Positions 3,761 to 22,673 of a stretch of DNA of 64,000 bases are shown piece after piece. The translations under genes and the position numbers were made by a program. This stretch comes from Candidatus Omnitrophota bacterium (GTDB lineage: Bacteria; Omnitrophota; Gorgyraeia; Gygaellales; Profunditerraquicolaceae), in the NCBI GenBank assembly GCA_022710715.1, contig JAKLGJ010000003.1, positions 190,527 through 254,526 on the forward strand, in the 5' to 3' direction. Position 1 is the first letter of the stretch. Each line of letters begins with the position of its first letter. A model generated the notes under the pieces. That model was given only the letters and a program-made list of their open reading frames with translations, ran no database searches and was not told where the DNA came from.

Positions 3761-3766
3761 TACTGC

Positions 3767-5320: not shown

Positions 5321-5396
5321 AGGGGACAGGTCCACCCAAAACCCTCCGTCGACAAAAACAGCCAGATGTGTCCCCTTTCAAATTTGCTATGTCCCC
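5320..5396 (+). repeat. REP-like element copy E, abutting the epsI stop codon.
   Basis: Identity to copies A-C. Confidence 0.85.
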
Positions 5397-5425
5397 TTTT
5401 CCTTTTCCAACTCACTCAACTCAAC

Positions 5426-5941
5426 TCAATTCACATCAAACCTCGGTTTGGGCGGCTCATCCGGAGGCGGCTCAATGAGTTTTTTGATCGTTGTGAAGAT
5501 CACCTGAATATCAGTTTCATGCATTTGATACTTCCGCTCTAATTCTTCAATTTTCTCCGATAACTCTTTGTGCGTTAACAACAGTTCTCGCAGCTTCACA
5601 AATGCCCGCATAATTGCTATATTTACCTGGACTGCACGTTCTGAACGCAGCACACTCGATAACATCGCCACACCTTCTTGAGTAAACACATACGGCAGGT
5701 ATCTGTGCCCACCCCAACTTGAGGTCACAAATTGTGACCTCAAGTCTACAACCTCTTCTCGGCTAAGTTGAAACATAAAATCTTCAGGAAACCTCTTAAG
5801 ATTCCTTCTAACGCCTTGAAGCAAAGCTTTCGTCTTCACACCATACAGCTCCGCCAAATCCCTATCCAGCATCACCTTCTTCCCTCGAATCAACAGAATC
5901 TTTGCAGCCACAACCTCCACCGAAATTTTCTCTTTTTTCAT
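5426..5941 (-). CDS. ORF6N-domain protein, paralog 2.
   Basis: [35 protein letters not shown]...[58 protein letters not shown] before ATG 5941. Confidence 0.7.
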
Positions 5942-6132
5942 CGCTCTCCCTCCCTTCATCACTAATAGACGCAGAGAGAAGCGAAATCTAACACAAATCT
6001 CCAGCAACTTATCTCCACCCACCTATAAAAACAAGTAGGACATGGGGACACGAACGAAAAGGAACCAGGTGCCGCGAGGTAACCCCAACAAGAAAAGCGC
6101 ATATTTCTATGCGCTTCCTTCGCCTCCTGATT

Positions 6133-6148
6133 CAAAAGGGGACACAGC
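6133..6148 (-). repeat. Truncated REP-like remnant (a single GGGGACACAGC arm) just 3' of the lipoprotein gene. A second GGGGACAC lies at 6044-6051.
   Basis: Matches the first arm of copies D, G and H only. Confidence 0.4.
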
Positions 6149-6158
6149 TTTTTTCCGC

Positions 6159-6350
6159 CTAATTGTCCAGATACTTGAACTTGCTGACTTTGCTCTGCAG
6201 GTTCGGCTGATGAATCTCTTCTTCGATCACCGTCTTGACGATCTTGCCTTCCGCATCCTTCTCCACCGTGACTTTCTTGTGATAGCCGGTTAACGTCGTG
6301 CACCCGGATAATAAAACCGCAACCAACACCACAACGATAGCCCTTAACAC
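6159..6350 (-). CDS. Small lipoprotein with lipobox LLSGC.
   Basis: Signal peptide plus lipobox; overlaps the GT26 gene by 7 nt (operonic). Confidence 0.45.
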   Translation of the reverse strand: MLRAIVVVLVAVLLSGCTTLTGYHKKVTVEKDAEGKIVKTVIEEEIHQPNLQSKVSKFKYLDN

Positions 6351-7855
6351 TTGAGCACCCCCTTTCGCATTTTATACCGCAACACCATCCCAAACAACTT
6401 CGCCCCATCAATGAAATACCGTTTAAACATCCTGCGCGGCTCCATGAACACGCGCCATAACCACTCCAGATGAATAGCAATCATTATTTTAGGCGCCCGC
6501 CGCACATATCCGGACAGAAAATCAAGATACGCTCCCACGCCCATGCATAACCTCGGCTTTAATGCCGCTCGATGCTTATGAATCCACTTCTCCTGTAAAG
6601 GAGCACCCATGCCTACCAGCAGAATATCCGCCCCGGAATTATTGACCTGTTCCACCACATCGTCATCATTCGCAAAAAATCCGTTGCACACTCCCGCAAC
6701 CTTTAATCCCGGGAACCGATTAGTTGCCATTTCAGCGGCCTTCCGAGCAACCCCCTCCTTGCCCCCCAATAAAAACACCGCCAATCCCCTGTTTGCGGCA
6801 ACACGCAAAACAGCAGGAGAAAACTCCGTCCCGTTGCAATTATCCAGCATCCTGATCCCCAGTAAAGAAGAAACCACCCCCAATCCGATCCCATCGGGCA
6901 ACACCAAATCTTTCCCGTTCAGAATGCCCCGATATGCTTCATCTTTCTGCGCTTTATATAAACAATCCGCATTGAGGAAGAAAATCGTTCTTTTGGCAGA
7001 CGACTTGTTCTCGCCATTCCCAAGTATATCTTCAGCAATGTTTACGGCTTCTTTAAAATAAAGGTTATCGTAAGACACATTAAGCACTAAAGCTCGATCT
7101 CGCTGTTGCACTCCCACAGAGTGCCTTTTCCCCATAAAGTAACTCTTGATCAACAATCCCAACAAAAACAGGCCGCTTTTCGCATATCTTCCCAGCATCA
7201 GTTGAGGATCCTGTGCAATCCTCCAGGTCCATTCCAGATTCAATTTCCGCAGCAACACCGGCGCCCGCTTCAGCCTACCGCCGGGATAATCCATCCATCC
7301 CCCGACGCCCAAACAAAGCCGGGGATTCAACTGATCTCGATGCTTATTGATCCACTTCTCCTGTAAAGGCGCGCCCATGCCCACAATCAGGATATCCGCA
7401 CCCGACCGATTAATCTCTTCGATAACAGCCGCATCATCGCTAAAATATCCGGGATGCGCACCAACGATCTTTAATCCGGGATAAGCCTTAACCAGATTGT
7501 CGCCGGCTTTCTTCACTATTTCTTCCTTGCTCCCCAATAAAAACACCTTATTTCCGCCGAAAGCCGCAGTGACTAAAACCACCGGCGTCAAATCAGACCC
7601 ATTGCAATTTCCACGCGATTCAGTTCCCAACGACGCGCTCAAAAGCCGCAGATAAACACCATCCGGCAAAACCAGTTCAGCCGAATTCAGGATCTTAGCA
7701 TATTCCTCATCGTGCAACGCTTTGTACAGATAATCCGCATTGAGAAAAAACACCGACTTCTTGCTTTTTCCCTGCAAATAATCCTTAACCGTATTCACGG
7801 CTTCCTGGAAAGTCAGATTATTGTAGTTGATCCCAAAAACGTCGGTTTTGTGCAT
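6344..7855 (-). CDS. Tandem-duplicated WecB/TagA/CpsF-family (GT26) glycosyltransferase, two complete domains in one polypeptide.
   Basis: Two about 245-aa halves that each carry FFLNAD..LY, VLPDG, LLG.KEE, GADIL.VGMGAPLQEKWI.KHR..L.PRLC.GVG and LEW.WR motifs. Confidence 0.75.
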   Translation of the reverse strand: MHKTDVFGINYNNLTFQEAVNTVKDYLQGKSKKSVFFLNADYLYKALHDEEYAKILNSAELVLPDGVYLRLLSASLGTESRGNCNGSDLTPVVLVTAAFGGNKVFLLGSKEEIVKKAGDNLVKAYPGLKIVGAHPGYFSDDAAVIEEINRSGADILIVGMGAPLQEKWINKHRDQLNPRLCLGVGGWMDYPGGRLKRAPVLLRKLNLEWTWRIAQDPQLMLGRYAKSGLFLLGLLIKSYFMGKRHSVGVQQRDRALVLNVSYDNLYFKEAVNIAEDILGNGENKSSAKRTIFFLNADCLYKAQKDEAYRGILNGKDLVLPDGIGLGVVSSLLGIRMLDNCNGTEFSPAVLRVAANRGLAVFLLGGKEGVARKAAEMATNRFPGLKVAGVCNGFFANDDDVVEQVNNSGADILLVGMGAPLQEKWIHKHRAALKPRLCMGVGAYLDFLSGYVRRAPKIMIAIHLEWLWRVFMEPRRMFKRYFIDGAKLFGMVLRYKMRKGVLKC

Positions 7856-7858
7856 AGC

Positions 7859-8623
7859 TTAAATTGAGTCGAATATACTCCAGCAATCCAAAGCTCCGTT
7901 AACGATCTTCTTAAAACTCTCCAATGAATCATCACGCTCTATCTTAGTGCGTTTCAAATCAAACAACTCGCAGCCCGGATAATTTATTCCATTGATCGCG
8001 CTGAATGCGCATTTATATCCTGCTTCCTGCACGATTTGCCGGGACAGTTGGTTGTAATGCCTTCGCAAACCATACGGATAAGCAAAGAATTCGATAGATT
8101 CGGATAAAACAGCTTCCAGATCAGCCTTGCAACCGACAATCTCTTCTTTCATCTGCTCCAATGGCGCCCTAGACAGCAAACAATGCGTGCGGGTATGGCC
8201 GCCGAACTCAATCCCGGCCGCACGCATCTCTTTTACCTGGTCTTTGGTCACAATTCCCTTATCTGCGGTAGTCAAAAAAACACATCCTGGCACATTGTTC
8301 TTCTTTAACAAGGGAAAAGCATTATAGTAAATACACTCGCGCCCGTCATCCATGCTCACCGCAATTACCGTGTTTTTCAATTCCTTCTGCCCGGTCAAAA
8401 ACTCATACGCCTGGCGCAAAGAAACAATCTCGAAATTATCTTTCAGATACTTCAGCTGATCTTCGAACATGCCCGTAGAAACGCTATATATGTTCGAAGC
8501 AACGTCCTCCACGTCATGATACATCAACACGCGCACGCCCGGCTGTGTCAGCCTACTCTTGTCAATTTTGCCCCAAGCAGCGCACCTGCGCCTTAACCAA
8601 ACCTTGGCTTTTGTTTTTAACAT
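7859..8623 (-). CDS. Polysaccharide deacetylase (CE4 / NodB-like).
   Basis: SMDDG...HTRTHCLL motifs. Confidence 0.6.
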   Translation of the reverse strand: MLKTKAKVWLRRRCAAWGKIDKSRLTQPGVRVLMYHDVEDVASNIYSVSTGMFEDQLKYLKDNFEIVSLRQAYEFLTGQKELKNTVIAVSMDDGRECIYYNAFPLLKKNNVPGCVFLTTADKGIVTKDQVKEMRAAGIEFGGHTRTHCLLSRAPLEQMKEEIVGCKADLEAVLSESIEFFAYPYGLRRHYNQLSRQIVQEAGYKCAFSAINGINYPGCELFDLKRTKIERDDSLESFKKIVNGALDCWSIFDSI

Positions 8624-8637
8624 ATTACCCGCGAATG

Positions 8638-8646
8638 TGATATAAT
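8638..8646 (+). promoter_or_regulatory. Extended -10 TGaTATAAT. Would place the TSS at or near the second ATG (8654), i.e. a leaderless mRNA for the secreted hydrolase.
   Basis: TGATATAAT at 8638-8646 overlapping the first ATG (8645). Confidence 0.35.
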
Positions 8647-10933
8647 GATTCCCATGAAGAAATTCATCTTCCTATTATTAATCATTATACCCCTATTCTG
8701 CCCCTCCATACAAGCCCAAACCCAAGAAAATGAAGATGGTGAGTGGTATCCCTTCTATTTTCCGGAGAAACTCGATCCCGACTCTCCCATGAACATCGGT
8801 AAGCTGGTTTTAGACGCCCCTGCCGGAAAACACGGTTTCTGCAAAGTCAAAGACGGCCATTTCTATTTTGAGGACGGAACAAGAGCGAAATTCTGGGGCA
8901 CTAATCTTTGTTTCAACGCCTGTTTTCCCACCAAGGAACAAGCAGAAATGTTGGCCACCCGCATTGCCTACTTCGGCTTTAATGCTGTCCGTCTGCATCA
9001 TATGGATTTCTATTTCGAGCCCAAAGGAATCTTTGAAGACGTTTGCCCGGCCTACAAAGACCCGCAGATGAAAAGAACTGGAGTTTTGAGCAAAAAACAA
9101 CTCGACAAGCTGGATTACCTGATTTACCAATTAAAAATTAGAGGCATCTACATAGATATGAATTTGCTTGTGGCTCGTCATTTCACGGAAGCGGACGGAG
9201 TCAAATTTGCAAAAGAACTGGGTATGGCGGCAAAACCGGTTTCCATGTTTGATCCCAAACTTATTGAACTGCAGAAACAGTACGCTAAAGACCTACTCAC
9301 GCATTATAACCCTTACACAAAACTACGTTACTGCGACGATCCGGTAATCGCACTTATTGAAATTACCAATGAGAACTCAATTATTGGGTCCTGGCAAGGG
9401 AATAATCTAAACGGAACCCTCTTGGGTCTAAAAACCAAGGGGATTCCCGATTATTACTCCCAGCAGCTTGATATCAGCTGGAACAAATGGTTGGAGAAAA
9501 AATACTTAACAACTGAGCATACTATTGCCGCCTGGGAGGATACGTCCACCCATCCCGCCCAACTACAAATGATTTTTCTGCCTTCACTGGATCAATGGAA
9601 AACGGAACAACACAGTACAGCTAAACTATCTAAATCTGTAACTTCAGAAGGTGTAACAATTAAGGTAAAAACTATCACAAATACCCCTTGGCATCTTCAG
9701 TTTAAATCACACATTGATATTACTAAAGATAAAAACTACATATTAAACTTTACCGGATACAGTTCTAAACCAACAACCGCCGGTTTGATTTGCCAACAAA
9801 CATCTCCGCCATGGGATAATGTAGGATTGGCTGAAAGTATTATTTTCACCACAACCCCACAGGATTTTGCCATACCCTTCACAGCAACTCAGAGCTCAAC
9901 AAAAGCAAAACTGGCTTTTCTCATCGGCTACGACACTTCGACAATCTATTTATCCAATATCACTCTGACAAGTGCAAACAATTTGCCATTGAAATCGGAA
10001 TGCGAACCTACCGATCACTTTAACTTTCCAAGACCTCTCTACAAATTGCGATTTTTTCATAATAAAAAAATCATCAAAGACATTGCTTCTTTCTATGCTG
10101 ATCTAACAAAAGAGTACATCGACCAAATGTTATCCACACTACGGACTGACATAGGTATTAAAGTGCCAATCACAGGCATCGGGGGCAACATTCATGAAGA
10201 AAACATTCCCGCAATGCAAAACTGCGACTTCACTGATCATCACACATATTGGGACCATCCCAAGTTTCCACACAAACCTTGGGACAGGAATGACTTTGTT
10301 ATCGAAAACAAATCAATGCTTCAAAATCCTTCATTGGGCATGATAGGTTCTATAGATAAATACCACTTCGATAAAACTAAACCATATACCATAACTGAGT
10401 GGAACCATTGCTATCCCAACAAATTTGCTTACGAATCCCCTATCCTGATAGCACTCCACGCAAAACAAAAAGAATGCGACGCATTATTTCAATTCGCATT
10501 CAGTCACGGCTGGGAAATAAACTTCAGACTAGATACCATTCAAAGCTATTTCGATATTCTTTCCAATGCGCAACAATTACTACTTTGCGGTATGGGCAGC
10601 TTCATCCACCTATCACAAGATACAGCAGACCACTCACTTAATAATGGCATCTTGCGGTTCAAATCATCCGGCATCGAGGGATACTGCGGGTCTATTGCCA
10701 ACACCCCGCTGTACTTAAATGCCCAACCAATAATTTCACGGGACAACGGCGCGATTATTATTTTAACTAACAGTCAACAGTCAACCGATGCTTTATTCTC
10801 AGTCGGCGAGATTAAAAATTCGAACAGCGGCTGGCGCAATAATAAATTCATCTGGGGGGCAAGACCAACACTAATGAAACGCATCAAAACAAAGCAAACA
10901 GCGGAAAATTCAGCAAAGACACAACTACCTTGA
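8645..10933 (+). CDS. Secreted glycoside hydrolase, GH5-like TIM barrel plus C-terminal beta-rich domains.
   Basis: Signal peptide MKKFIFLLLIIIPLFCPSIQA; RLHHMD and IEITNENS (NE catalytic-acid-type motif). Sole plus-strand gene of the glycan island. Start may be 8654. Confidence 0.5.
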   Translation: MIPMKKFIFLLLIIIPLFCPSIQAQTQENEDGEWYPFYFPEKLDPDSPMNIGKLVLDAPAGKHGFCKVKDGHFYFEDGTRAKFWGTNLCFNACFPTKEQAEMLATRIAYFGFNAVRLHHMDFYFEPKGIFEDVCPAYKDPQMKRTGVLSKKQLDKLDYLIYQLKIRGIYIDMNLLVARHFTEADGVKFAKELGMAAKPVSMFDPKLIELQKQYAKDLLTHYNPYTKLRYCDDPVIALIEITNENSIIGSWQGNNLNGTLLGLKTKGIPDYYSQQLDISWNKWLEKKYLTTEHTIAAWEDTSTHPAQLQMIFLPSLDQWKTEQHSTAKLSKSVTSEGVTIKVKTITNTPWHLQFKSHIDITKDKNYILNFTGYSSKPTTAGLICQQTSPPWDNVGLAESIIFTTTPQDFAIPFTATQSSTKAKLAFLIGYDTSTIYLSNITLTSANNLPLKSECEPTDHFNFPRPLYKLRFFHNKKIIKDIASFYADLTKEYIDQMLSTLRTDIGIKVPITGIGGNIHEENIPAMQNCDFTDHHTYWDHPKFPHKPWDRNDFVIENKSMLQNPSLGMIGSIDKYHFDKTKPYTITEWNHCYPNKFAYESPILIALHAKQKECDALFQFAFSHGWEINFRLDTIQSYFDILSNAQQLLLCGMGSFIHLSQDTADHSLNNGILRFKSSGIEGYCGSIANTPLYLNAQPIISRDNGAIIILTNSQQSTDALFSVGEIKNSNSGWRNNKFIWGARPTLMKRIKTKQTAENSAKTQLP

Positions 10934-10939
10934 TATCAA

Positions 10940-11875
10940 TCAGCCATTTTTTAACAAAAATGCCGTTTGAGTCCACAAATTACCTTTTGCGCTCAATTTT
11001 CGATATCTAGCATACGCATTACCACTAACCCTCGGTTTTTTGTTAAAAATCATTCCAAACCGCCTAAAAGATAGCAAAAGAACAAACACCATCTTCAAGA
11101 AACAACGATGTCGGATCCCCTTCACCAAATAAACAGGCGTTCTAACACAAGTTTCTCTTACCGCTCCCCAGAAAGGGAAATATCTCCAGGCGACCCATAA
11201 GCTATTACGTAACCGTCGACACTCGTGTTCAGAGTTAAAGATTCTTTTTTCAAGTGAAATACGGTGGAAAACTTTAATTTCCGGACAATACAATATTCCA
11301 AATCCGGCGTTTAACGCTTTAAGGCTCAACTCAGATTCCTCCCAACTGAAGAACAGATCATCCCAATAAAATCCAGCCTGTTCAAAAACTTCGCATCTAA
11401 TCGCATGTCCACAACCGCAGAATGTATATGTTGAAAACTCCTCATCCTGCTTTTCCATAAAGCTTTTCTGATATACCCACGAACCCATGTCTAGTTCTTT
11501 AGTATGCGAATTGAGAATCTTAAATCCGATTATCCCAATTTCAGGATTAGCTTTGAATTTACCAACTATTTTGCTCAAAGAACCGTCTTCAAAACTAGCA
11601 TCATTATCCAGGAATACCAAGAACCGCCCCCGAGCATTAGCAACACCGATATTGCGACCTCCCGGAACTCCCATGTTTTTATGCAAACAGATCAACTTGA
11701 CTCCTTGGGGTACAAAATCATGCTCCAACATCTCAATAGTGCCATCAGTAGAACCTTGATCAACAACAATTACTTCATAATCATTAAAATCCTGTTTAAA
11801 GAGGTCATTTAAGGTCAAAGCAATATCATGCTTTCTGTTCCAACTAAGAATAATAACACTAATCAATTTCGACAT
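10940..11875 (-). CDS. Family 2 glycosyltransferase.
   Basis: SVIILSWNR...VVDQGSTDGT...DNDA motifs; start at MSKLIS. Confidence 0.7.
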   Translation of the reverse strand: MSKLISVIILSWNRKHDIALTLNDLFKQDFNDYEVIVVDQGSTDGTIEMLEHDFVPQGVKLICLHKNMGVPGGRNIGVANARGRFLVFLDNDASFEDGSLSKIVGKFKANPEIGIIGFKILNSHTKELDMGSWVYQKSFMEKQDEEFSTYTFCGCGHAIRCEVFEQAGFYWDDLFFSWEESELSLKALNAGFGILYCPEIKVFHRISLEKRIFNSEHECRRLRNSLWVAWRYFPFWGAVRETCVRTPVYLVKGIRHRCFLKMVFVLLLSFRRFGMIFNKKPRVSGNAYARYRKLSAKGNLWTQTAFLLKNG

Positions 11876-12815
11876 TCTCTTTAGTCCCCTGGATCCACCC
11901 CACAAAGAAACCTAATAACGCTGCCCAATCCCTTACAAGAACAACAATCGGCAATAAAAAATAAGCCTGGGGTATACTTTTGATTTCGACAAACCATTTC
12001 CAATGGTTTTTAACAGTTAATCCAATCCACAAAATAAAAACCACACATCCACCCCCACCCCAAATAATGGTATTAAAAATAAAGGATAAAGTACAAAAAA
12101 GCAGAATAGCAAAATAAAGAGCCAATTTTCTTAGATGAAAGATTAAATCGACTTTAACTTGTCCTTTCCCTTTTGCATACTGATAATATTGTTTAAAAAA
12201 AGCACCTATTGTTGAACGAGGTCGCCAATAAATTTTAGCTTTTTCATTTATTACTGTCTTAAAACCGGCTTTTTCAATTTTTTTAATAAACAGATAATCC
12301 TCAGCTGTTCGCAATGTTTCTGGGTACCCCCCCACCCTCTCCCACACATACTTTTTAAAAGCCATACACGCAACATACGGCCACAATTGGATTGGATAAA
12401 ATACAGCAACTGAACATTTCTCGAAAATTGTTTTGCCATCAGGCAAACGAATTCCATATACAACATCAACAGACGGATCTTCAAAAAAAGGCCTAACCAT
12501 CTCTTCAACAAAAAAATTATCAAAAGTGCACCCTGCATCAGTTGAAACAATGAGTTCACAACGAGCGGAATCAATAGCCACATTGCGTCCACGTCCAGGC
12601 AACGCACAGCTTACGGAAAGCAATTTGACAGGCAAGGAATCCTTGTATTCATTAATAATACTCATCGTATTATCGCGAGATCCTCCATCAACAATAACAA
12701 TTTCATTAATCAATAAGGATTGCGATTTCAATCTTTCCAACAGATCTCTCGCAACCTTTTCTTCATTCTTAATTGGTATCACAACTGCTACTAAACTTTC
12801 TTTAAAGTGTTTCAT
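11859..12815 (-). CDS. Family 2 glycosyltransferase with a C-terminal transmembrane extension.
   Basis: VVIPIKNEE...IVDGGSRDNT...STDAG motifs; hydrophobic C-terminus. Confidence 0.65.
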   Translation of the reverse strand: MKHFKESLVAVVIPIKNEEKVARDLLERLKSQSLLINEIVIVDGGSRDNTMSIINEYKDSLPVKLLSVSCALPGRGRNVAIDSARCELIVSTDAGCTFDNFFVEEMVRPFFEDPSVDVVYGIRLPDGKTIFEKCSVAVFYPIQLWPYVACMAFKKYVWERVGGYPETLRTAEDYLFIKKIEKAGFKTVINEKAKIYWRPRSTIGAFFKQYYQYAKGKGQVKVDLIFHLRKLALYFAILLFCTLSFIFNTIIWGGGGCVVFILWIGLTVKNHWKWFVEIKSIPQAYFLLPIVVLVRDWAALLGFFVGWIQGTKENVEID

Positions 12816-14136
12816 TGTGAATCCTTTTTGAAGATACAACACAACTATTTGTTTGGCATTTCTCAGCTAGCGCCACAATAACAATAAAATACGTCAATGT
12901 TGAAGCACTGCGAGATAGATTATCGGAGAAACTTACAAGAAGATAAAGACACGAAAGTATTGTTACCGTCAAGGAGAATTGTCGAACAATATCATCAGAA
13001 CTATTCCTGAAGACCTTGTAATTTCCAATAGCAAGAGAAATATAAATTAATATATACAATATGCAACCGGGAAGGCCAGTTTCCACAAGTAAGCGAACAT
13101 AATCATTATGGGCATAAACTGATTTCATCTCGGGAAACATGCCTAACCCGACTCCCATAACAGGGTGCTCGTAAAAAAGCGGTAAACCTTCATTCCAAGT
13201 CTTTACTCTCCAAGTCCAAGAATCAGTATAATAGCCATGAGTTCTACCATGCCCAACATCTGCAAATCGCTGAATAATAAGCGGAGAGAACAAAAGAATA
13301 ATTAATATTAACGCTCCAAGAATTTTGAATCGATATTCGCGCACTAAAACAGCAAGAATGGCACACCCAAGAATTGCTGCTAGCCAGGCAGCCCGAGTAA
13401 ATGTCAACAGGAGAAAAATAGAATAGATAAGTAAAAGAATTAAATTAAACGCGCTATTAATTTTAAATTTGTTATAAACCAGATTAACGATTAAAACAAT
13501 CATAATAGTTAATAAAAAGAAGGCAAACATATTTGGATGCACAAAAGTACCATAAATTCTTTTAAAACCAGCATCTACAATACCAACATCCTTCCCGATC
13601 TGCCAGATAGAAAAAAAGATAGGTAAGATTGTTGCTCCTACAAAACTAATAAATATCTTTCTCAATTCACTTTTATCAAATAAATGAAAAGAAATCAACC
13701 CGATCATAAGCAAACCAACAAAACGAAGAAGGTCTATAAAACTTATTACAGGCTTGATCGAAAAGATCGAAGAAAAAGAACAGAAAGCAATAAAGCAAAT
13801 TAAGAGTCTAAAACTCCTGATCTTGAAAATATTTATTTTCTTAAACAACAGGAAAAATATCGAAACGATAATCACTGCTACAGTCATATATGAAGCGAGA
13901 TTCTCTGCGCCAACACCAAAACTTATTCCCGACTTCGAGAAAACATCAAGAAAACTTCTTATGAAAAGATAATACAGCAATCCCAATTTGAGGTTTAAGA
14001 ATAACAACGCAATAAAACCTATAATAAAAAAAGAACTGATAAGTACAACAAAATTAAGCTCATTAAACAACATCAAAACAGAAAAAAAGAGAAAAAGAGA
14101 AACAGACAAAACAACCAAACTTAATGCTCTATGCAT
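12802..14136 (-). CDS. Wzy-type O-antigen polymerase / O-antigen-ligase-like membrane protein.
   Basis: Polytopic; Wzy_C-like motif AHNDYVRLLVETGLPG. Confidence 0.6.
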   Translation of the reverse strand: MHRALSLVVLSVSLFLFFSVLMLFNELNFVVLISSFFIIGFIALLFLNLKLGLLYYLFIRSFLDVFSKSGISFGVGAENLASYMTVAVIIVSIFFLLFKKINIFKIRSFRLLICFIAFCSFSSIFSIKPVISFIDLLRFVGLLMIGLISFHLFDKSELRKIFISFVGATILPIFFSIWQIGKDVGIVDAGFKRIYGTFVHPNMFAFFLLTIMIVLIVNLVYNKFKINSAFNLILLLIYSIFLLLTFTRAAWLAAILGCAILAVLVREYRFKILGALILIILLFSPLIIQRFADVGHGRTHGYYTDSWTWRVKTWNEGLPLFYEHPVMGVGLGMFPEMKSVYAHNDYVRLLVETGLPGCILYILIYISLAIGNYKVFRNSSDDIVRQFSLTVTILSCLYLLVSFSDNLSRSASTLTYFIVIVALAEKCQTNSCVVSSKRIHNETL

Positions 14137-14169
14137 AAATTGCCTTTCTGATCAAAATTAATTTATAGA

Positions 14170-15393
14170 TTAATTACTTAATAATTCCTGAAGCAATTTG
14201 CCGCTCTTGAGAGATTCTTTTTTAAAATTATCAACTCGTTCTCTTAAATATTCAGATATTGAACTTTGCTGGTTCCAAAGCTCCAATATTTTATCGTTAA
14301 CATTTTTCAATTGGAACTCGGCGAGATTTATATAGTAATTCAGAGAATTAAAAACATCGCTATTAATGCCAACAGATTTCAAACTATACCCCAAACTCAA
14401 AGTAGGAACACAAGTAGAAAAAGCTGCAATCGTTGAGTGTGTACGCGTTCCGACGAAAAGTTTGCATTTACTTATAACGTACTTTACCTCATCAGCGGCA
14501 AGATCTTCATCAATTAGAATTACCCTAGGATCCTTCTGAAAAAATCCTTTTATTGCTCTCAAACACGTTAAATCATTATCATGGTCACTAGTCACATGCG
14601 GTATTAATAAGACATTACACGGGATTTTACTCAAGACAAATTGAACAATTTCAATACAATATTTGACCCAAATAGCGAAATTGCCCTTAGCAGCATACTT
14701 AGCAACCAGAGGGCTAAAATTAAAACCAACAAAATGACCTGTCAAGTCTATATTCATTCTGGATAAATCAGGCATTCGCGGCTCCATCATAAACGCAGGA
14801 TCAGTGACTTTATAAACGTTTTCCTTAAGCCCTAAAGAATGGCAATAATCAATCGTTTTGCTTTCACGAGCAAAAATAATTGTACGTCTCAATTGCTCAG
14901 CAATGAACCTTTCATACACGGGATCCTGCGTAAAAGGACCAATTGAAGCACCCCAAATAATTATCGGTTTCCTTTTTCGCAAAACAAAATCATTCAGTCT
15001 AAGAAAGAAATCTGGTCTTCCATAATCCAACGAAAAATTATCTCCCCCAATGGCTAAAACTGCTTGGCTTAAAGCAAGGTCATTACTTATTGTTCTAAAA
15101 ATAACATCTTCATAAAGAGATTCTGACACTCTTTCCAATATTCGCTCAGCAGCCCATGGAAAAGAAAACCTTCTTGGCACCAAATATTTCGCGTGCTTAA
15201 TTTTACCATTGTTTTCACGAACCACTTGTTTCCGATATTGCGCGTTACTAATGAAATTACTATAAACGAGAAATTGAGGATCCTTATAAAAATGAGACAG
15301 AATCGCGTAAGTGCCCTTCACAATCGCTTCACATCCGCGATTTTCATAAGGTCCATTGCCCACAAGAACAAATCGAGTATTAGGGTCAGGCAT
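14170..15393 (-). CDS. Polysaccharide pyruvyl transferase (CsaB/WcaK family).
   Basis: PF04230-like layout; overlaps the downstream FeS gene by 8 nt. Confidence 0.55.
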   Translation of the reverse strand: MPDPNTRFVLVGNGPYENRGCEAIVKGTYAILSHFYKDPQFLVYSNFISNAQYRKQVVRENNGKIKHAKYLVPRRFSFPWAAERILERVSESLYEDVIFRTISNDLALSQAVLAIGGDNFSLDYGRPDFFLRLNDFVLRKRKPIIIWGASIGPFTQDPVYERFIAEQLRRTIIFARESKTIDYCHSLGLKENVYKVTDPAFMMEPRMPDLSRMNIDLTGHFVGFNFSPLVAKYAAKGNFAIWVKYCIEIVQFVLSKIPCNVLLIPHVTSDHDNDLTCLRAIKGFFQKDPRVILIDEDLAADEVKYVISKCKLFVGTRTHSTIAAFSTCVPTLSLGYSLKSVGINSDVFNSLNYYINLAEFQLKNVNDKILELWNQQSSISEYLRERVDNFKKESLKSGKLLQELLSN

Positions 15394-16594
15394 GCAACCT
15401 CACTCCCACAAAAAGCTTAACCAATCGAATAAATTCTTTAACCACAACTTTACAAGACGGCGCACCCAAAACGGACATTCCTGTAACACCAGGGCAATTA
15501 CCAATCAAATTAGCATGTAAAGGATAACAAATTCGCTTGGTTCTGGTATTGATGGTAAAGGCATTCAGAATTGCTTGTAAGCGAAGGTTGTCAGCATGGA
15601 TTTTCTTCGCGTCCACTAAACCATCAACTATCTGCTTACCCTTATCTGAACGGATTATCATTACGTTTGTTCCAATTGTATCCCCTTTTTGCTCGGGTAA
15701 CCAAGCATCACCAAAGGAGATGTCCGAGAAATCGCCGAAGAAATCCTGACAACAATAGCAGGCTAAAGGAGTAAAATATCCGGATCCAAAACATGTTGCC
15801 CACGCATCAGTAGACAATTCACTGATTTCATGCTGATTGTCAACTTTAATCTTAGTTTTCCCGGGCCACCCATCTCCTCTCCATTGAAAATAAGTAACCT
15901 GTGAAGCACTCACTTTATGCTTTTTTAAATAGCGGCTCAAAGCTCTATAAGAAGGCGCTTGATTACAAAACAAAGCAAGAATTAAGACTATAGACTCTTT
16001 TAAAACTTTGTCATGCGACATTGCCTTACGCAATGCAATTGCATGACACGGTAAACATACGACAGCTACCTTACGAGGATTCCTTTTAAGTTCAATTATT
16101 GCTTTATCCAGCGACACAGGACAATACTTTGAACCTTTTGCATTAAAAATTTCCTCTTCGGTCGAAGCAATAAAAGCTTCCGCCCGGACCTCTCTTCCGT
16201 ATTTCAAGCGGGTAACGACCACACCATCAACAACTTTATTTCTTAACAATTCAATCGACATTGTCGTTACCAGCCCACCGGAAGAACAACTAAACCTCAA
16301 ATCACCATTACCAGAATAACCTTTATAAATAGCTTGGAAATTGCCTATTAAGGCATTTTCAGGAGCTTGACCAAAAATCGAAATATTAAGTTCTTTATGA
16401 TCAAAACCAAATCCCGGACAGACTTGCTGGCACTTGCCGCAAAATATACATTTCGTCGTATCTAAAACTGGATAATTAATGCCTTCGGAGGTAACACGAA
16501 TAGTAATTGCTTGTGTCGGACAAATACCCGCACATACTCCGCAGCCGCAACACATAGCTTTAGATAATCTATCAAAAACAGAATTGGTTTTCAT
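15386..16594 (-). CDS. Coenzyme F420 hydrogenase/dehydrogenase beta-subunit-like 2x[4Fe-4S] protein.
   Basis: CGCGVCAGICP and CIFCGKCQQVCP ferredoxin motifs plus a FrhB-like C-terminal domain. A common partner of pyruvyl transferases in CPS/EPS loci. Confidence 0.6.
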   Translation of the reverse strand: MKTNSVFDRLSKAMCCGCGVCAGICPTQAITIRVTSEGINYPVLDTTKCIFCGKCQQVCPGFGFDHKELNISIFGQAPENALIGNFQAIYKGYSGNGDLRFSCSSGGLVTTMSIELLRNKVVDGVVVTRLKYGREVRAEAFIASTEEEIFNAKGSKYCPVSLDKAIIELKRNPRKVAVVCLPCHAIALRKAMSHDKVLKESIVLILALFCNQAPSYRALSRYLKKHKVSASQVTYFQWRGDGWPGKTKIKVDNQHEISELSTDAWATCFGSGYFTPLACYCCQDFFGDFSDISFGDAWLPEQKGDTIGTNVMIIRSDKGKQIVDGLVDAKKIHADNLRLQAILNAFTINTRTKRICYPLHANLIGNCPGVTGMSVLGAPSCKVVVKEFIRLVKLFVGVRLHA

Positions 16595-17832
16595 GCAAAG
16601 GTAGAAAATGAGGACACATCATTCGCTATGTCCGTAGTCTTTAGAACTTTATGTTTGTAGACAACATAGTATGCTGAAACGACCCTAAAGACCCAGGATA
16701 CTAAAGCCGCAAGAGCTGCTCCAGCCAGCCCCCATAAAGGAATTAAGAAAAAATTTAAACAAAGATTAAAGAAAATTCCCAATATGCATGTCCCTAAAAA
16801 CAATTGCAGCAAGTTTTTCGGTAACCTTCCACCAATAATGCCAGCCGGAATCGCATATAAAATCCGAAAAAATCCTGCCGCAATAAAAAAGACTAACAAA
16901 TGGGCTGAATGGTCATATCGGCCTTTGAAAAACCAATGCAGCAATGGCTGACCGGCAAACAAATATCCAATACAAACTACTATGGCGAGTATTCCAGCTT
17001 TAATTGAATCATTTTTAATGGGACGAGAATTATCTTTTGCATAATGCGGCATCATCACAAACCATAAAGCGGTAGCAACTAACTCGAACCCTCGGGTTAC
17101 CGTTATAACCACTACATAATCAGCTAATTTCGAGAAACCAAGCATTTTCGAGATAAAAAATTGATCAACCTGAACCATTACGGTATACGAAAACGTAATA
17201 AAAAAAAGAACTATCCCCTCTTTTACAAATCTGGCGGAAACAGCTTTCTCTCCCGATGGCAAACGATGTGTTACTAGATTACCTAAAACAAAAGTACTAA
17301 AAAAGATCAAGGTATAAACAAAAATAAGTCCCCAAAAGCTAAAAATCTTAAAAACAAAACACATCATTGCTACGCAAACAGAGAAAAAAATAGAATTTGT
17401 TTTACTTAAAAGCATTGACGAAGAATACCTGTCTTGAGACCGTAACAATGCCGAGTAATACTCGGTCCCAACCGCTGCCACGACCGCAAAATAAGCAAAT
17501 AACATTTCCTTCTTTAAATGATACATAAGACCGACAATAATACAACCTACGGCTGCAAACAAAGATGAAAATAACAAGCACGATCGAATAAACTTTTTCC
17601 AGTCATATTCTTTAATGTTCTCTCTATTAAATACGCGTATTATTGCCATATTCTGACCGAATAGTAATAAAGATGATAACATAATAACAACGGTATTAAT
17701 AAATTTAAACCGCCCGAACAAATTCGGGGGCAATAAACGGCCCAGAATAACATTGGTCAACAGTTCAGCAATCGCTGCCACTCCTAATATAATAGACACT
17801 GAACCGACTTTTTGGATTAAACTTGATTTCAT
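16591..17832 (-). CDS. Wzx-type polysaccharide flippase (MOP superfamily).
   Basis: About 12 TM helices; overlaps the upstream gene by 4 nt. Confidence 0.65.
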   Translation of the reverse strand: MKSSLIQKVGSVSIILGVAAIAELLTNVILGRLLPPNLFGRFKFINTVVIMLSSLLLFGQNMAIIRVFNRENIKEYDWKKFIRSCLLFSSLFAAVGCIIVGLMYHLKKEMLFAYFAVVAAVGTEYYSALLRSQDRYSSSMLLSKTNSIFFSVCVAMMCFVFKIFSFWGLIFVYTLIFFSTFVLGNLVTHRLPSGEKAVSARFVKEGIVLFFITFSYTVMVQVDQFFISKMLGFSKLADYVVVITVTRGFELVATALWFVMMPHYAKDNSRPIKNDSIKAGILAIVVCIGYLFAGQPLLHWFFKGRYDHSAHLLVFFIAAGFFRILYAIPAGIIGGRLPKNLLQLFLGTCILGIFFNLCLNFFLIPLWGLAGAALAALVSWVFRVVSAYYVVYKHKVLKTTDIANDVSSFSTFA

Positions 17833-17850
17833 TGATTATACCCTTATTCC

Positions 17851-18336
17851 TTACTTTATTTCCTCAAACAACTCCCCATTATCATACTCCGCCGGAAGCA
17901 CCAGATGCGCTGGCTTGCCGAACAGGCAGTCGCCTTCCTTATAAAACCCTTCGGCGATGAGCTCGGAGCAGACAAACCGCCGCTTGCTGCTGAAGAGCCG
18001 GTGCAGCCCCTCCCCTATGCGCGTAAACAATAGCGACAGCGGGAACCAGAAGAACTGCAAAGTATCGTAAGGCAGGTTGTTCATGGTCGCCCACCAGAGC
18101 GCGACTTTGTAGCGCTGGCGCTCGGACTGGCCGCGGCGGCGCAGGTGCTTGATCTGTATGCCCTTATCCAGGTAGGACTGCTTTAGATTGACCAGGCGGG
18201 AGCGCGGGATGCCGGCTTCGATGCAGGTATAACCGCCTAAACAGCCCAGCACGTGAGTCCATTTGCTGCTGTCGCCATAGCCGGCCTGAACCTGCGTTTT
18301 CTCGATAAGCTGATTGTGTCCGGCGACCAGGATCAC
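17851..18336 (-). CDS. YiiX / peptidase C92 family (permuted papain-fold) protein; N-terminus appears disrupted.
   Basis: GDVILVAGHN...SSKWTHVLG and FVCSELIAEGF match YiiX GDLVF...SPWSHVG and YCSEFV. Only a GTG lying inside the conserved GDV motif is available as start. GC higher than the neighbouring island. Confidence 0.4.
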   Translation of the reverse strand: MILVAGHNQLIEKTQVQAGYGDSSKWTHVLGCLGGYTCIEAGIPRSRLVNLKQSYLDKGIQIKHLRRRGQSERQRYKVALWWATMNNLPYDTLQFFWFPLSLLFTRIGEGLHRLFSSKRRFVCSELIAEGFYKEGDCLFGKPAHLVLPAEYDNGELFEEIK

Positions 18337-18415
18337 ATCGCCGATCTTGAATGAGTCGATAGATTGCTTCGTCGCTTCGCTCCTCGCAATGACCCTACTC
18401 CGCTCCTCGCAATGA

Positions 18416-19276
18416 CTAACGCACCAGCTTGAGCAGATAATCCTTATACCCGGCGTCCATATCCTGGGCCAGCTTTTCCAGCTGCTCCCGGTTGATGTAT
18501 TTCATCCGATAGGCGGTTTCTTCCAGGCAGCCGATCTTCAACCCCTGCCGCTCTTCGATCATCCAGATGAAACGCGATGCGTCGCCGATGGAATCGTAGG
18601 TGCCGGTGTCCAGCCAGGCGTAGCCGCGGTCAAGCAGGACGACTTTGAGCTTGTTCTGCTTGAGATAAGCGGTGTTGACGTCGGTGATCTCCAGTTCCCC
18701 TCTGGCCGAAGGCTTGAGGTTCTTGGCGATCTCGATGACCTGGTTGTCGAAGAAATACAACCCCGTCACCGCCCAGTTGGATTTGGGATGCCGGGGTTTT
18801 TCTTCCAGGGAAACCGCGTTGTTGTTTTCGTCGAATTCCACCACGCCGTAGCGTTCGGGGTCTTTGACCGGATAGGCGAAGACTACCGCGCCTTTGAGAT
18901 CGAGCATGGCGATCTTGAGATGCTCCACCAGGCCGTGGCCGTAGAAGATGTTGTCGCCGAAGATCAAACAGGTGTTATCCTTGCCGATGAATTTCTCGCC
19001 GATCAGGAAAGCTTCGGCGATGCCTTTGGGAACTTTCTGCTCGGCGTAGGTGATGTTGATCCCTAATTGCGAGCCGTCGCCGATCAGGGCGTTGAACTGC
19101 TCCTGCGCGCCGGGCGAGGTAATGATGAGGATATCCCGGATGCCGGAGAGCATCAAAGTAGACAGCGGATAATAGAACATCGGCTTGTCGTAAAGCGGCA
19201 GCAAAGGTTTGGAGATGATCTTGGTCACCGGGTGGAGCCGTTTGCCGCGGCCTGCGGCGAGGATTATGCCTTTCAT
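18416..19276 (-). CDS. rfbA: Glucose-1-phosphate thymidylyltransferase.
   Basis: MKGIILAAGRGKRLHPVT...KPLLP...YGVVEFD canonical motifs. Confidence 0.9.
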   Translation of the reverse strand: MKGIILAAGRGKRLHPVTKIISKPLLPLYDKPMFYYPLSTLMLSGIRDILIITSPGAQEQFNALIGDGSQLGINITYAEQKVPKGIAEAFLIGEKFIGKDNTCLIFGDNIFYGHGLVEHLKIAMLDLKGAVVFAYPVKDPERYGVVEFDENNNAVSLEEKPRHPKSNWAVTGLYFFDNQVIEIAKNLKPSARGELEITDVNTAYLKQNKLKVVLLDRGYAWLDTGTYDSIGDASRFIWMIEERQGLKIGCLEETAYRMKYINREQLEKLAQDMDAGYKDYLLKLVR

Positions 19277-19434
19277 ACGCGCGTCCTTTTTTGTGCGAGC
19301 ATCCTCTTCAGTGTCGATTTAGGCAAAGCTGCGTTGAATCTGCGCATTTCTTCCAGCCAGGCGAGCTTTTGGGCGGCAGGCACGCGCAGCCAGCGTTTCA
19401 TCTTCTCTTCTTCGGATTCCCAGCCGTAACTCAT
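19274..19434 (-). CDS. Small 53-aa ORF (MSYGWESEEEKMKRWLRVPAAQKLAWLEEMRRFNAALPKSTLKRMLAQKRTRV), translationally coupled on both sides.
   Basis: Not in the ORF track (under 60 aa). TAATG overlap with the upstream NTase stop and ATGA overlap with the rfbA start. Confidence 0.35.
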
Positions 19435-19931
19435 TATTTCTTCCCTTTCATGATTCTCTTGAGCTTCTTCAGTTGCAAGATGTCGAATGTATCTATCTGC
19501 CGGGCAGAAGCTCTTTTCATAGCGATAAGATCATCTATCCCCATCACCGGAAGCGCTAAGCCGGACACTTTTACCCGCCGGGCGCGCTTGAGCGCTTCGG
19601 CAAAAGGAACCGGCGAATCCACAATAATATCTATCTCTTTCAATTCGCCTGGTTGGTAGTAATTGATCGCCTTGAGATTCTTCTGTTTGATTAACGCGGC
19701 CAATGCCGCCGGATCCAGCGCTTTTATGTCGATCGGCTGCTTCAAGCGGTATCCCAGAGAACGTAAGATGCGGTCAGCTTCCCGCAGAGTCTGCGGATCG
19801 ATACCGATCAAAAGATCCAGATCAGCGGTTGCCCTGGACACACCCAACAAATTGAGCGCGATGCCGCCCACGATCACATAATCGAATTTCTCGCGCTGGA
19901 ATGCTTTGAAAACATCCTCATAAATGATCAT
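19434..19931 (-). CDS. Pol-beta-superfamily nucleotidyltransferase-fold protein.
   Basis: VIVGGIALNLLGVSRATADLDLLI matches hG[GS]-x9-13-DhD. Confidence 0.5.
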   Translation of the reverse strand: MIIYEDVFKAFQREKFDYVIVGGIALNLLGVSRATADLDLLIGIDPQTLREADRILRSLGYRLKQPIDIKALDPAALAALIKQKNLKAINYYQPGELKEIDIIVDSPVPFAEALKRARRVKVSGLALPVMGIDDLIAMKRASARQIDTFDILQLKKLKRIMKGKK

Positions 19932-19977: not shown

Positions 19978-21561
19978 TCACACCCAGTTATAGATTGCCC
20001 TGGGGATGAAGAAGGTGCGGTTGTTCAAAATGATCCCCATGATGTTGGCTTTTTTCTCGGCCAGCGGGAAGAGCGCGTTGCGCACCACCTGCTTGCGGGT
20101 CTTGCCTTCGTCGACCACCAGCAGCACGCCGTCGACCTGACTGCACAGCAAAATGCTGTCGCGATGGGTCAGATCGGGCGCGGAGATAAGCACCAGATCG
20201 TAGCTGCGCACCACATCCGCCAGAAGGGTATTCATGCGGTTGGAGTCGAGCACGGTGACCGGGTTGAGCTCGGTCTTGCCCGCGGGAAGCAGCGCCAGGT
20301 TCTTAGAGATGGTCTGCACGGTCTTCTCAAAGGTGACTTTTTCCTCGATCACGTCGACCAGCCCCGGCGCGTTCTCCTTCTGCTTGTTCTCGAATTTCTT
20401 CAGGGTGAGCTGGCGGAAATTGGCGTCGACCACCAGGACTTTGAGCCCCCATTTCTCGGCGAGCGAACGGCCGAGGTTGACCACGATGTCGGCAGCGTCT
20501 TCGCCGTAGGCGGCGGTGGTGAAGAGCAGCGATTTGAGGTTCTTGTCCTTGGAGATGAGCAGGATCTGTTCGGCCAGGGTATCGAATGATCGGGACTTGC
20601 CTTTTTTAGGGATGAAACCCAGCGAGGGCAAAGCCAGGTAGCGTTCGACTTCCTGCGGCGATTTGAAGGTCTGGTCCATGTATTCGAACATGAACGCCAG
20701 CATGCCCCCCAGGAACAGGGACATGAAGATGGCCAGAATGATGATCAATCCGCCGGACGGACCCACGGGCCGCAAAGGCGGCAGGGCCTGTTCGATGACT
20801 TTGACGCTGGCCGGGCCGATAGCGTCGACGTCGTTAGGCAGAAGCTGGCCGCCGAAGAGCATTTTCTCTTTGGGCCGCTCTCTCTGCTCGATCTTGCTGA
20901 TGCTTTCCTGGATCTGGACTACGGTGGAATGTTTATCGCCGTATTTGGTCTGGAGCTCGGCCACCTGCTGTTCCAGGTCGAAAAGGATATACGCGCGGCT
21001 GACCACGTTGGCCACTGCCGCGGCGATCATCGGATCGTAATCGCGATATTTGATCAGGAAGAGATTGGTGTCGCGGATAGGCTCGATGTCGATGCGGGAT
21101 TTAAGCCGTTCCAGCGCGAGGAACGCCAGCTGGCGGCCTCTGGTCTGGTCGTCGAGGGCTTTGAGCTTGGCGGTGAGCATTTTGCGCTCGAGCTTCAGGA
21201 GGAGCGCTTTGAGCGGAGTTGCGGCTCTCTCTTCCACTTCCATGGGCAGGAAATTCTGCAGGGAGCGGAATTCGATGGTCCTGCGCAGCACCGGGAAGGA
21301 TTTGACGATTTCCGCCTGGGTCAGCGCCGCTTCCATGTTGCGGCTGCCCAAAAGCTCGCGATAGTAGGGCGATTCGACCTGTTTCTCGGCGGAGATGAGC
21401 ATCTTGACCTGGGCTTCGTATTCCGGGGTCCGCAGCATGTTGCCGATGATCACGGTGATCATCACGGTGATAAAACAGGTGATGATCACGGCTTTCTGGC
21501 GGAAAAGCACGCGCAGATAATCGCGCATGGTTGTTTCGGGTAATTGCTCGAGCTGTTCCAT
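19978..21561 (-). CDS. Polysaccharide chain-length determinant (Wzz N-domain) fused to a BY-kinase-like P-loop domain with a degenerate Walker A (TTAAYGEDAADIV).
   Basis: Two-TM Wzz topology with coiled coil; C-terminal domain has kinase-like DxD and hydrophobic strands but lacks GK[ST] and a C-terminal Tyr cluster. Confidence 0.6.
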   Translation of the reverse strand: MEQLEQLPETTMRDYLRVLFRQKAVIITCFITVMITVIIGNMLRTPEYEAQVKMLISAEKQVESPYYRELLGSRNMEAALTQAEIVKSFPVLRRTIEFRSLQNFLPMEVEERAATPLKALLLKLERKMLTAKLKALDDQTRGRQLAFLALERLKSRIDIEPIRDTNLFLIKYRDYDPMIAAAVANVVSRAYILFDLEQQVAELQTKYGDKHSTVVQIQESISKIEQRERPKEKMLFGGQLLPNDVDAIGPASVKVIEQALPPLRPVGPSGGLIIILAIFMSLFLGGMLAFMFEYMDQTFKSPQEVERYLALPSLGFIPKKGKSRSFDTLAEQILLISKDKNLKSLLFTTAAYGEDAADIVVNLGRSLAEKWGLKVLVVDANFRQLTLKKFENKQKENAPGLVDVIEEKVTFEKTVQTISKNLALLPAGKTELNPVTVLDSNRMNTLLADVVRSYDLVLISAPDLTHRDSILLCSQVDGVLLVVDEGKTRKQVVRNALFPLAEKKANIMGIILNNRTFFIPRAIYNWV

Positions 21562-22262: not shown

Positions 22263-22292
22263 CACTCCTCCTTTGATTAGAAACTTATCCAC

Positions 22293-22628: not shown

Positions 22629-22673
22629 ATCTATTTCTTTTCTTCAATTGAATGCGGCTTTTTCAACGCCCCC

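Follow-up and report, generated by a model that had tools for sequence, protein, structure and literature searches.

We analyzed a 64,000-nucleotide (nt) stretch of DNA from a Candidatus Omnitrophota bacterium (the window) and found that it carries a polysaccharide locus whose composition changes abruptly behind p161, a conserved 161-amino-acid (aa) Omnitrophota gene. We put the probability at about 0.8 that this is an Omnitrophota exosortase-linked, Wzx/Wzy-dependent exopolysaccharide locus with a replaceable AT-rich cassette docked behind p161, exchanged between lineages by homologous recombination. We observed the composition step, a syntenic framework in related lineages, cassettes that differ in content, the positions of the breakpoints, and discordant identities of neighboring genes. 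According to this model, a framework of host composition (an outer-membrane barrel, a priming transferase, Wza, a Wzc-like protein, RfbA, and an exosortase with EpsI) would provide the generic functions. The AT-rich block would provide the functions specific to the repeat unit (Wzx, a pyruvyl transferase with its FrhB-like partner, Wzy, two GT2 glycosyltransferases, and a GH5-like/CBM4 hydrolase), and a deacetylase and a tandem GT26 would form an older layer of the cassette. The enzymes may build a pyruvylated, partly de-N-acetylated heteropolysaccharide, the hydrolase may trim its own polymer, and exchange would proceed by RecA-type recombination.

An AT-rich block beside genes of host composition

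We determined GC content in 1-kb sliding windows. It was ~0.55 to 0.60 across most of the window, fell to a trough of 0.31 to 0.41 (minimum, 31%) from ~9.0 to 17.8 kb, and formed a shoulder of 0.45 to 0.50 between 5.0 and 9.0 kb. By region, GC was 0.380 at positions 8645 to 17832, 0.512 at positions 1 to 8644, and 0.560 at positions 17833 to 64000. The initial annotation had described a block of ~35 to 40% GC within ~60% GC DNA. The block, at 38%, agrees with this, and its flanks are GC-richer than the block, but the host value is ~56%, and 60% was an overstatement.

As the host baseline for GC at third codon positions (GC3), we used 31 open reading frames (ORFs) from 25.5 to 64 kb, which had a mean of 0.701 and a standard deviation of 0.060. 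The six core genes, all co-oriented on the minus strand, had GC3 values of 0.37 (GT2a), 0.30 (GT2b), 0.30 (Wzy), 0.30 (pyruvyl transferase), 0.33 (FrhB-like), and 0.35 (Wzx), which correspond to z scores of -5.5 to -6.7 against this baseline. The 762-aa ORF that encodes the hydrolase was at 0.44 (z, -4.3). RfbA (0.79), the Wzc-like gene (0.80), and p161 (0.76) were host-like, and the Wza and priming transferase genes were also within 0.70 to 0.80. Composition is therefore not uniform, with a core GC3 of 0.30 to 0.37 versus 0.70 in the host. The deacetylase (0.54) and the tandem GT26 (0.55) were intermediate (z, approximately -2.6), as the initial annotation had proposed, and its view of rfbA and wzc as host-like also held. 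When we compared GC-normalized dinucleotide signatures, the distance from the host (delta*) was 0.117 for the core and 0.023 for the adjacent framework genes.

It could be argued that these genes are native and vertically inherited and that they became AT-rich in place by selection or mutation bias (membrane-protein content, rare codons, or low expression), with no exchange. Consistently with this, Wzx and Wzy are polytopic membrane proteins with the lowest GC, and AT-rich cassettes are found in 45% GC hosts as in 56% GC hosts. AT-rich wzx and wzy genes are also near-universal and still in need of explanation (PMC3715488). However, when we recoded the core genes with host codon preferences, the predicted GC was 0.49 to 0.54, and the actual GC is 0.33 to 0.40. 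Amino acid content thus explains only the drop to 0.49 to 0.54, and the remainder is synonymous. Because recoding still predicts 0.49 to 0.54, we concluded that the AT shift is mostly synonymous and not a by-product of membrane-protein content. Furthermore, the soluble pyruvyl transferase, FrhB-like, and GT2 proteins are encoded by equally AT-rich genes. With the comparative evidence below, we consider a native origin quite improbable; selection could nonetheless help to keep imported cassettes AT-rich.

The left edge of the AT-rich block is graded. In contrast, the right edge is abrupt: the p161 stop codon (TAA) is at 17851, and an 18-nt spacer (17833 to 17850) separates it from the wzx ATG at 17832. 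An abrupt step in a window that comes from metagenome assemblies might reflect a chimera of a low-GC and a high-GC organism. However, assemblies made independently at ENA and JGI, including one 1.62-Mb contig that crosses the junction, match the window with 100% identity over positions 8416 to 29276. Since these replicate assemblies agree, the step is not an assembly chimera. The genes on the two sides are also co-oriented with only the 18-nt spacer between them, and the same architecture is found in six other lineages from unrelated samples. We therefore give a chimera next to no credence.

Different cassettes behind a shared framework

p161 (17851 to 18336, minus strand) is the last gene of host composition before the step. 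It has >270 homologues at 65 to 77% identity and no match in Pfam or NCBIfam. His28 and Cys123 are invariant in the family, and weak matches to Peptidase_C92 (the permuted papain-like amidases YaeF/YiiX) were found in 6 of 32 members.

We scanned species-representative genomes with the Wzc-like protein and found three relatives, L004, L005, and L006 (63%, 51%, and 45% identity, respectively). These nearest genomes and the source organisms of database proteins identical to window proteins are named as Candidatus Omnitrophota. A metagenome scan with a p161 alignment returned 80 loci, most of them from low-GC Omnitrophota with p161 in other contexts and no composition step. In six independent GC-rich lineages (the window, L004/L016/L017, L015, L019, L021, and L022), GC3 falls from 0.6 to 0.77 to 0.27 to 0.40 directly after the p161 stop. 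In a seventh lineage (L007/L023), a block of intermediate GC3 comes first, and AT-rich genes lie further on.

The framework (BBP2 porin, priming transferase, Wza, Wzc-like protein, and p161) occurs with differing AT-rich sets of Wzx, Wzy, and glycosyltransferase (GT) genes in L004, L005, L007, L015, L019, L021, and L022. For example, L004 retains the barrel, the priming transferase, Wza, Wzc, and p161 (74.5% identical), after which GC falls from ~55% to ~33%. Its cassette encodes Wzx, Wzy, a GT4, a TupA-like ATP-grasp protein, a second GT4, a 303-aa ORF, and a GH129-like hydrolase. By tblastn at an E value of ≤1e-3, none of the window's island proteins matched the L004 cassette; the sole pair was a weak blastp link (E ≤ 1e-5) between the two Wzy proteins, with 27% identity over 139 aa. 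The L015 cassette begins with Wzy, the L021 cassette has Wzx, a different pyruvyl transferase, and then an FrhB-like gene, and the L022 cassette has Wzx, Wzy, and a GT2. In L005, framework genes have ~45% GC and GC is ~32% after Wzc. The RfbA gene is absent from L004, L005, and L007. Cassette content was distinct in every lineage compared, and comparison of sister genomes for cassette replacement thus gave a conserved framework with different gene sets after p161 in seven lineages.

The alignments also located where similarity ends. Between L019 and L007, identity is 96.7% across 3.8 kb of framework and 90.9% within p161, and the two become unalignable from ~30 nt before the p161 stop. L021 gave the same picture with each of these two genomes, at 92.7% and 94.6% identity upstream and with nothing alignable downstream of p161. 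That genomes 93 to 97% identical upstream have nothing in common downstream argues against vertically inherited genes that drifted in place, as do the Wzx and GT4 genes of host composition that L007, L019, and L021 carry in this locus.

A second type of discordance was found between the window and L021. Their p161 genes are 72.9% identical, and the first ~800 nt of wzx (17817 to 17018) are 85 to 94% identical (Fisher P, ~1e-13). The 5' part of wzx as a whole (17018 to 17832) is ~90% identical. Beyond 17018, sliding identity within wzx is 55 to 73%, and then there is none. The p161 C-terminal tails diverge past a conserved FDNxxLF motif, and the tail of L021 runs into what is spacer sequence in the window; the block shared by the two loci starts there. 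This mismatch between wzx and p161 also argues against a native origin. The initial annotation had read the block as a serotype-variable core that arose through horizontal exchange, and both the replacement in relatives and the wzx/p161 discordance support this.

Two further loci have altered p161 genes. In L005, the intact p161 is gone, and two remnants of its 3' end flank an AT-rich methyltransferase gene. In L022, a second copy of p161 lies before the cassette. It is a degenerate mosaic that has lost the conserved His, with a 5' part similar to the first copy and a 3' part similar to other lineages. Taken together, the alignments indicate that the p161 3' end is the proximal crossover zone and that breakpoints lie inside the cassettes too. 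Proximal crossovers map to the final ~30 codons of p161 or immediately past its stop, and further breakpoints within wzx and around wzy make the cassettes mosaics.

The duplicated p161 sequences of L022 and L005 can also be read as att-like duplications, as expected if the block were a genomic island brought by a self-mobile element (a phage, an integrative and conjugative element, or a transposon) through site-specific integration. In addition, toxin-antitoxin-like genes interrupt the framework, and an IS200-like Y1 transposase gene, two ORF6N/KilA-N-like genes, and members of a set of seven 88-nt repeats lie 0.2 to 4 kb left of the cassette. However, we found no integrase, recombinase, or transposase in positions 6344 to 17850 (the Y1 transposase is ~3.5 kb outside), no tRNA gene within the window, and no direct or inverted repeats at the two borders. 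The cargo is purely biosynthetic. Finally, the breakpoints are scattered over the p161 3' end, the inside of wzx, and the surroundings of wzy, and scattered breakpoints are typical of homologous exchange and not of a fixed att site. We consider site-specific integration of a mobile element very unlikely.

Several points weigh against exchange by homologous recombination of cassettes docked behind p161. All 12 contigs with an identical RfbA carry the same cassette, and the lack of within-population variation seen here also suits a native origin. The baseline for the discordance with L021 is a single shared gene, p161. We found no donor; the pyruvyl transferase search missed a 71% identical relative in the contig L095 (below), and so it was not exhaustive. 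L095 itself is read from wzx onward, and its cassette may be native or an island there. No sister cassette ended in a deacetylase or GT26 over the 10 kb examined, and the crossover site in the flanks is thus defined on the proximal side only. The nature of the polymer is a prediction from its genes.

The p161 gene has two further features. Its reading frame stays open 5' of the GTG at 18336 and encodes N-terminal conserved residues (..SFKIGDVILV), and in 17851 to 18420 this open stretch upstream of the GTG has no ATG, GTG, or TTG; p161 may have a non-canonical start or a shortened N terminus. Directly upstream of p161, the 31 nt at 18362 to 18392 form a GC-rich motif, TCATTGCGAGGAGCGAAGCGACGAAGCAATC; L022 has a similar motif behind its first copy of p161.

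Extent, genes, and source of the cassette

When we searched with the tandem GT26 of the window, we found P0392, a 58% identical tandem GT26 encoded on L095 (NCBI contig JASEYN010002878.1 of GCA_030154545.1). L095 encodes, in order, Wzx, an FrhB-like protein, a pyruvyl transferase, a 477-aa Wzy-like protein, two GT2 proteins, a 758-aa CBM4 protein (on the opposite strand), a deacetylase, and the tandem GT26. Amino acid identity to the window is 77% for Wzx, 66% for the FrhB-like protein, 71% for the pyruvyl transferase, 66% for GT2b, 75% for GT2a, 78% for the 762-aa hydrolase, and 52% for the deacetylase. For Wzy there was no tblastn match, and the 477-aa protein of L095 is weakly Wzy_C-like. 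At the DNA level, identity is 72 to 75% except in the deacetylase and GT26 genes (66 to 67%) and at positions 12470 to 14349, which hold wzy and are unalignable. On this alignment, wzy is a nested swappable unit of ~12470 to 14349.

Because L095 keeps the whole gene order, we concluded that the functional cassette extends from wzx to the tandem GT26 (6344 to 17832). The span proposed by the initial annotation, 8624 to 17850, matches the compositionally youngest layer but stops short of the left end of this cassette, which reaches the GT26 gene at 6344. All the L095 cassette genes are AT-rich, including the deacetylase (GC3, 0.34). The deacetylase and GT26 genes of the window are GC-richer and more divergent, which suggests an older resident layer, with 8645 to 17850 as the most recently acquired one.

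We assigned gene identities with Pfam throughout and with NCBIfam models for part. Pfam agrees with the initial identification of two GT2 proteins, Wzy, a pyruvyl transferase, an Fe-S protein, Wzx, a deacetylase, GT26, and rfbA. On the minus strand, reading away from p161, are the Wzx flippase (16591 to 17832; Polysacc_synt, 38.4 bits with a cutoff of 28.2) and the FrhB/FdhB-like Fe-S flavoprotein (15386 to 16594; FrhB_FdhB_N and _C and Fer4 domains, with two [4Fe-4S] clusters). The polysaccharide pyruvyl transferase of the CsaB/WcaK family follows (14170 to 15393); its PS_pyruv_trans match is full length at 134.8 bits (PF04230 cutoff, 25.3), and its scores are under the cutoffs of both the WcaK and CsaB equivalog models. 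Next are the Wzy polymerase (12802 to 14136; Wzy_C, 71 bits with a cutoff of 31.7), GT2b (11859 to 12842; Glycos_transf_2, 62.8 bits), and GT2a (10940 to 11905; Glycos_transf_2, 100.6 bits). Beyond the hydrolase gene, the same strand encodes a CE4 polysaccharide deacetylase (7859 to 8623; Polysacc_deac_1, 80.7 bits) and the tandem GT26 (6344 to 7855; Glyco_tran_WecG, 374 bits in two stretches). The latter is a 503-aa protein in which two complete WecG/TagA domains are fused. Few relatives match it over the full length (one at 58% and a handful at 31 to 35% identity), and most GT26 homologues are single-domain proteins or are joined to Bac_transf.

The 762-aa protein (8645 to 10933, plus strand) has no Pfam or NCBIfam match of its own, and against PDB sequences it gave weak matches to GH5 mannanases and a CBM4. 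We built a profile from 38 homologues taken from a family of >5,000. This profile matched the CBM4 of the laminarinase 1gui (E, 8e-24) and GH5 mannanases (8gf3; E, 5.6e-8). Among the 38 homologues, 17 matched Cellulase (GH5, PF00150), 12 matched GH42, and 30 matched CBM_4_9. We looked for the catalytic pair of clan GH-A, an NE acid/base on strand 4 and an E nucleophile on strand 7, and found that an N242-E243 pair and E585 are near-invariant (in ≥90% of the 38 sequences). We therefore describe the protein as a predicted secreted, GH5-like hydrolase of clan GH-A into which a CBM4/9 domain is inserted. The initial name, a GH5-like hydrolase, holds at the level of the family profile only, and it omitted the inserted CBM4. 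The enzyme is probably a polymer-specific trimming or release enzyme. In the L004 lineage, the cassette ends in a GH129/GH101-related hydrolase (L016, 15653 to 18064), and those of the window and L095 (6814 to 9090) end in the GH5-like/CBM4 protein. Two unrelated cassette types, each with its own large hydrolase, suggest that a matched polymer-processing enzyme travels along.

The deacetylase gene and the 762-aa ORF diverge from a single 21-nt gap. Promoter and terminator scans of 5 to 20 kb were at chance level. The best promoter-like match there (8617 to 8646) fits 11 of 12 positions, includes an extended -10 TG, and ends at the ATG annotated as the start of the 762-aa ORF. Translation may in fact begin at the ATG at 8654, or the transcript may be almost leaderless. 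With Rfam, no family reached its gathering score in the whole window, and we thus found no known RNA, JUMPstart-like or other.

We also examined where the AT-rich DNA may come from. In composition, the cassettes match the low-GC lineages that make up most p161-bearing Omnitrophota, and their AT-richness may reflect an AT-rich shared gene pool, possibly the predominant low-GC part of the phylum. Dinucleotide and tetranucleotide signatures split the island from the host and did not split AT-rich candidate sources from one another. Aside from L095 and L021, the best database matches of the pyruvyl transferase were one 67% fragment and otherwise proteins at ≤44% identity; the named best relatives were mostly Methanosarcinales (40 to 44%). 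Methanosarcina mazei (CP009509; L013) has the same Wzx-FrhB-like-pyruvyl transferase-GT2 order as the window, as does L014, with 41 to 43% identity for the pyruvyl transferase and 28 to 29% for the FrhB-like protein. We rejected this module as a recent donor because it is syntenic but only 28 to 43% identical. At these identities, it is apparently an old module common to the window and Methanosarcina, with no evidence of recent transfer.

The FrhB/FdhB-like Fe-S flavoprotein is consistently encoded beside a polysaccharide pyruvyl transferase in Omnitrophota, Methanosarcina, and other taxa. We found such pairs in the window (14170 to 16594), L013 (6608 to 9224), L014 (6611 to 9224), L095 (1140 to 3525), and L021 (5618 to 7134), where the order is reversed. 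We found no description of a role for the redox partner in pyruvylation.

Methanogenic archaea are neighbors, hosts, or prey of some Omnitrophota. In a broader model, the p161 3' end would serve the whole clade as a dedicated docking point for a pool of AT-rich glycan cassettes that circulates across Omnitrophota of very different GC, with a pyruvylation module shared with methanogenic archaea and with surface switching or archaeal mimicry in an epibiotic lifestyle. We regard this extension as unlikely.

The framework, known loci, and neighboring elements

Upstream of p161, the framework genes are on the minus strand. The RfbA-type glucose-1-phosphate thymidylyltransferase (18416 to 19276; NTP_transferase, 235 bits) has host composition. 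The Wzc-like chain-length/ATPase protein (19978 to 21561) scores slightly under the Pfam cutoffs for Wzz (23.1 bits), GNVR (23.8 bits), and AAA_31 (25.7 bits). Then come the Wza-type outer-membrane polysaccharide export protein (21588 to 22292; Poly_export, 66.5 bits, plus SLBB), the priming polyprenyl-phosphate sugar-phosphate transferase (22775 to 24193; Bac_transf, 236 bits, plus CoA_binding_3), and a BBP2/EpsL-like outer-membrane β-barrel (24220 to 25395), which has a weak BBP2_2 annotation and is under the cutoffs for EpsL and TIGR03016. On the other side of the cassette, an exosortase (EpsH family) and EpsI are encoded by genes of host composition on the plus strand (3731 to 5320; Exosortase_EpsH [PF09721], 202 bits; DUF3485, 84 bits). 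The exosortase scored 156.1 with TIGR02602 (cutoff, 105.55) and EpsI scored 70 with TIGR02914 (cutoff, 42.8). The scores did not reach a named exosortase subtype (XrtV, 191 versus 313; XrtB, 185.9 versus 275; XrtA, 137.9 versus 208).

Previous work documented the behavior of O-antigen clusters in Salmonella, which the pattern in the window matches (PMC3715488). Like the enterobacterial clusters between galF and gnd in Salmonella and Escherichia coli, the window locus is Wzx/Wzy dependent, with genes of 33 to 40% GC in a ~56% GC host, intermediate layers, crossovers in the flank, and a swap of wzy only. It differs in phylum and in its proximal flank, which is p161 instead of galF/JUMPstart, and its ties to exosortase/EpsI and to Wza/Wzc-like export make it EPS- or capsule-like and not a lipid A-linked O antigen. 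In Klebsiella, cps loci have a conserved 5' end (wza and wzc) followed by variable GT genes, wzx, wzy, and modifying enzymes, and pyruvyl transferase genes occur in their variable regions, as does, in one case, a "coenzyme F420 hydrogenase" gene (PMC4616057). In contrast to Klebsiella group 1 cps, the window has no wzi, wzb, or gnd, and its Wzc-like domain matches are under the cutoffs. Exosortase-associated (PEP-CTERM) EPS loci, of the EpsH/EpsI and XrtB/XrtV types, likewise group an EpsL-like barrel with a priming transferase, Wza, and a chain-length protein in one neighborhood. Here, the exosortase and EpsI score over the family cutoffs, but XrtV and XrtB are under theirs and EpsL is far under.

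A 2026 preprint on 176 complete Omnitrophota genomes described a 25-kb variable polysaccharide cassette and capsule/lipopolysaccharide glycosyltransferase cargo in hypervariable regions (bioRxiv 10.64898/2026.06.07.730766). That work measured within-population variability by read soft-clipping, whereas the variation seen with the window is between lineages, and we liken the loci by description. Variable Omnitrophota polysaccharide cassettes are thus already reported; for one clade, we add the gene behind which they dock, the positions of breakpoints, the mosaic makeup of the cassettes, and their GC contrast with the host.

Omnitrophota are uncultured and mostly ultra-small, and some are epibionts or predators. 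To our knowledge, their surface chemistry is essentially unknown. According to our model of cassette exchange behind p161, a GC-rich Omnitrophota lineage would diversify its exopolysaccharide by swapping cassettes at a defined junction. p161 together with wzx and wzy could be used for strain typing in metagenomes. The same genes would offer a handle on phage- or host-driven surface selection and on the matching of glycan (here predicted to be pyruvylated) to habitat. The locus also offers a clean non-enterobacterial case for the unresolved question of AT-rich wzx/wzy cassettes. It extends the well-known principle of the serotype cassette and introduces no new one.

A response regulator gene (25585 to 25968) and a hybrid histidine kinase/response regulator gene (25980 to 27266) adjoin the locus. 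The framework is dotted with small selfish or defense-like inserts that differ between lineages. In the window, these lie at 19273 to 19931 and 22293 to 22544 and comprise a DUF2204/AbiEii-like nucleotidyltransferase gene with a 53-aa partner and a CopG-like gene. Inserts in sister loci are zeta-toxin-like, AAA_14/DUF4143, AbiEii, Fic, and PRiA4_ORF3 genes, at 3818 to 4396 and 8700 to 10004 in L007, at 2603 to 3253 in L021, and at 1 to 666 and 2337 to 2975 in L022.

The IS200-like Y1 transposase gene is at 2156 to 2860. The ~88-nt intergenic repeats have GGGGACA/TGTCCCC hairpin arms, and we found seven full copies with 75 to 91% identity, at 2063 to 2150, 2834 to 2921, 3487 to 3574, 3659 to 3751 (inverted), 5313 to 5400, 22669 to 22761 (inverted), and 34208 to 34289, and a partial copy at 6130 to 6153. 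They bracket the Y1 transposase gene, both ORF6N genes, and the exosortase-EpsI pair, and none abuts the AT-rich block. With the transposase, the repeats look like a REP/RAYT-type system. The two ORF6N (KilA-N-like) genes, at 2933 to 3556 and 5426 to 6022, are paralogous, are both on the minus strand, and flank the exosortase-EpsI pair. They are 74% identical over 279 nt, and their GC3 values, 0.55 and 0.48, are under the host value. Two milder dips in GC (0.47 to 0.50) occur elsewhere in the window, at 33000 to 34500 and at 53500 to 56000, and the former adjoins a copy of the 88-nt repeat.

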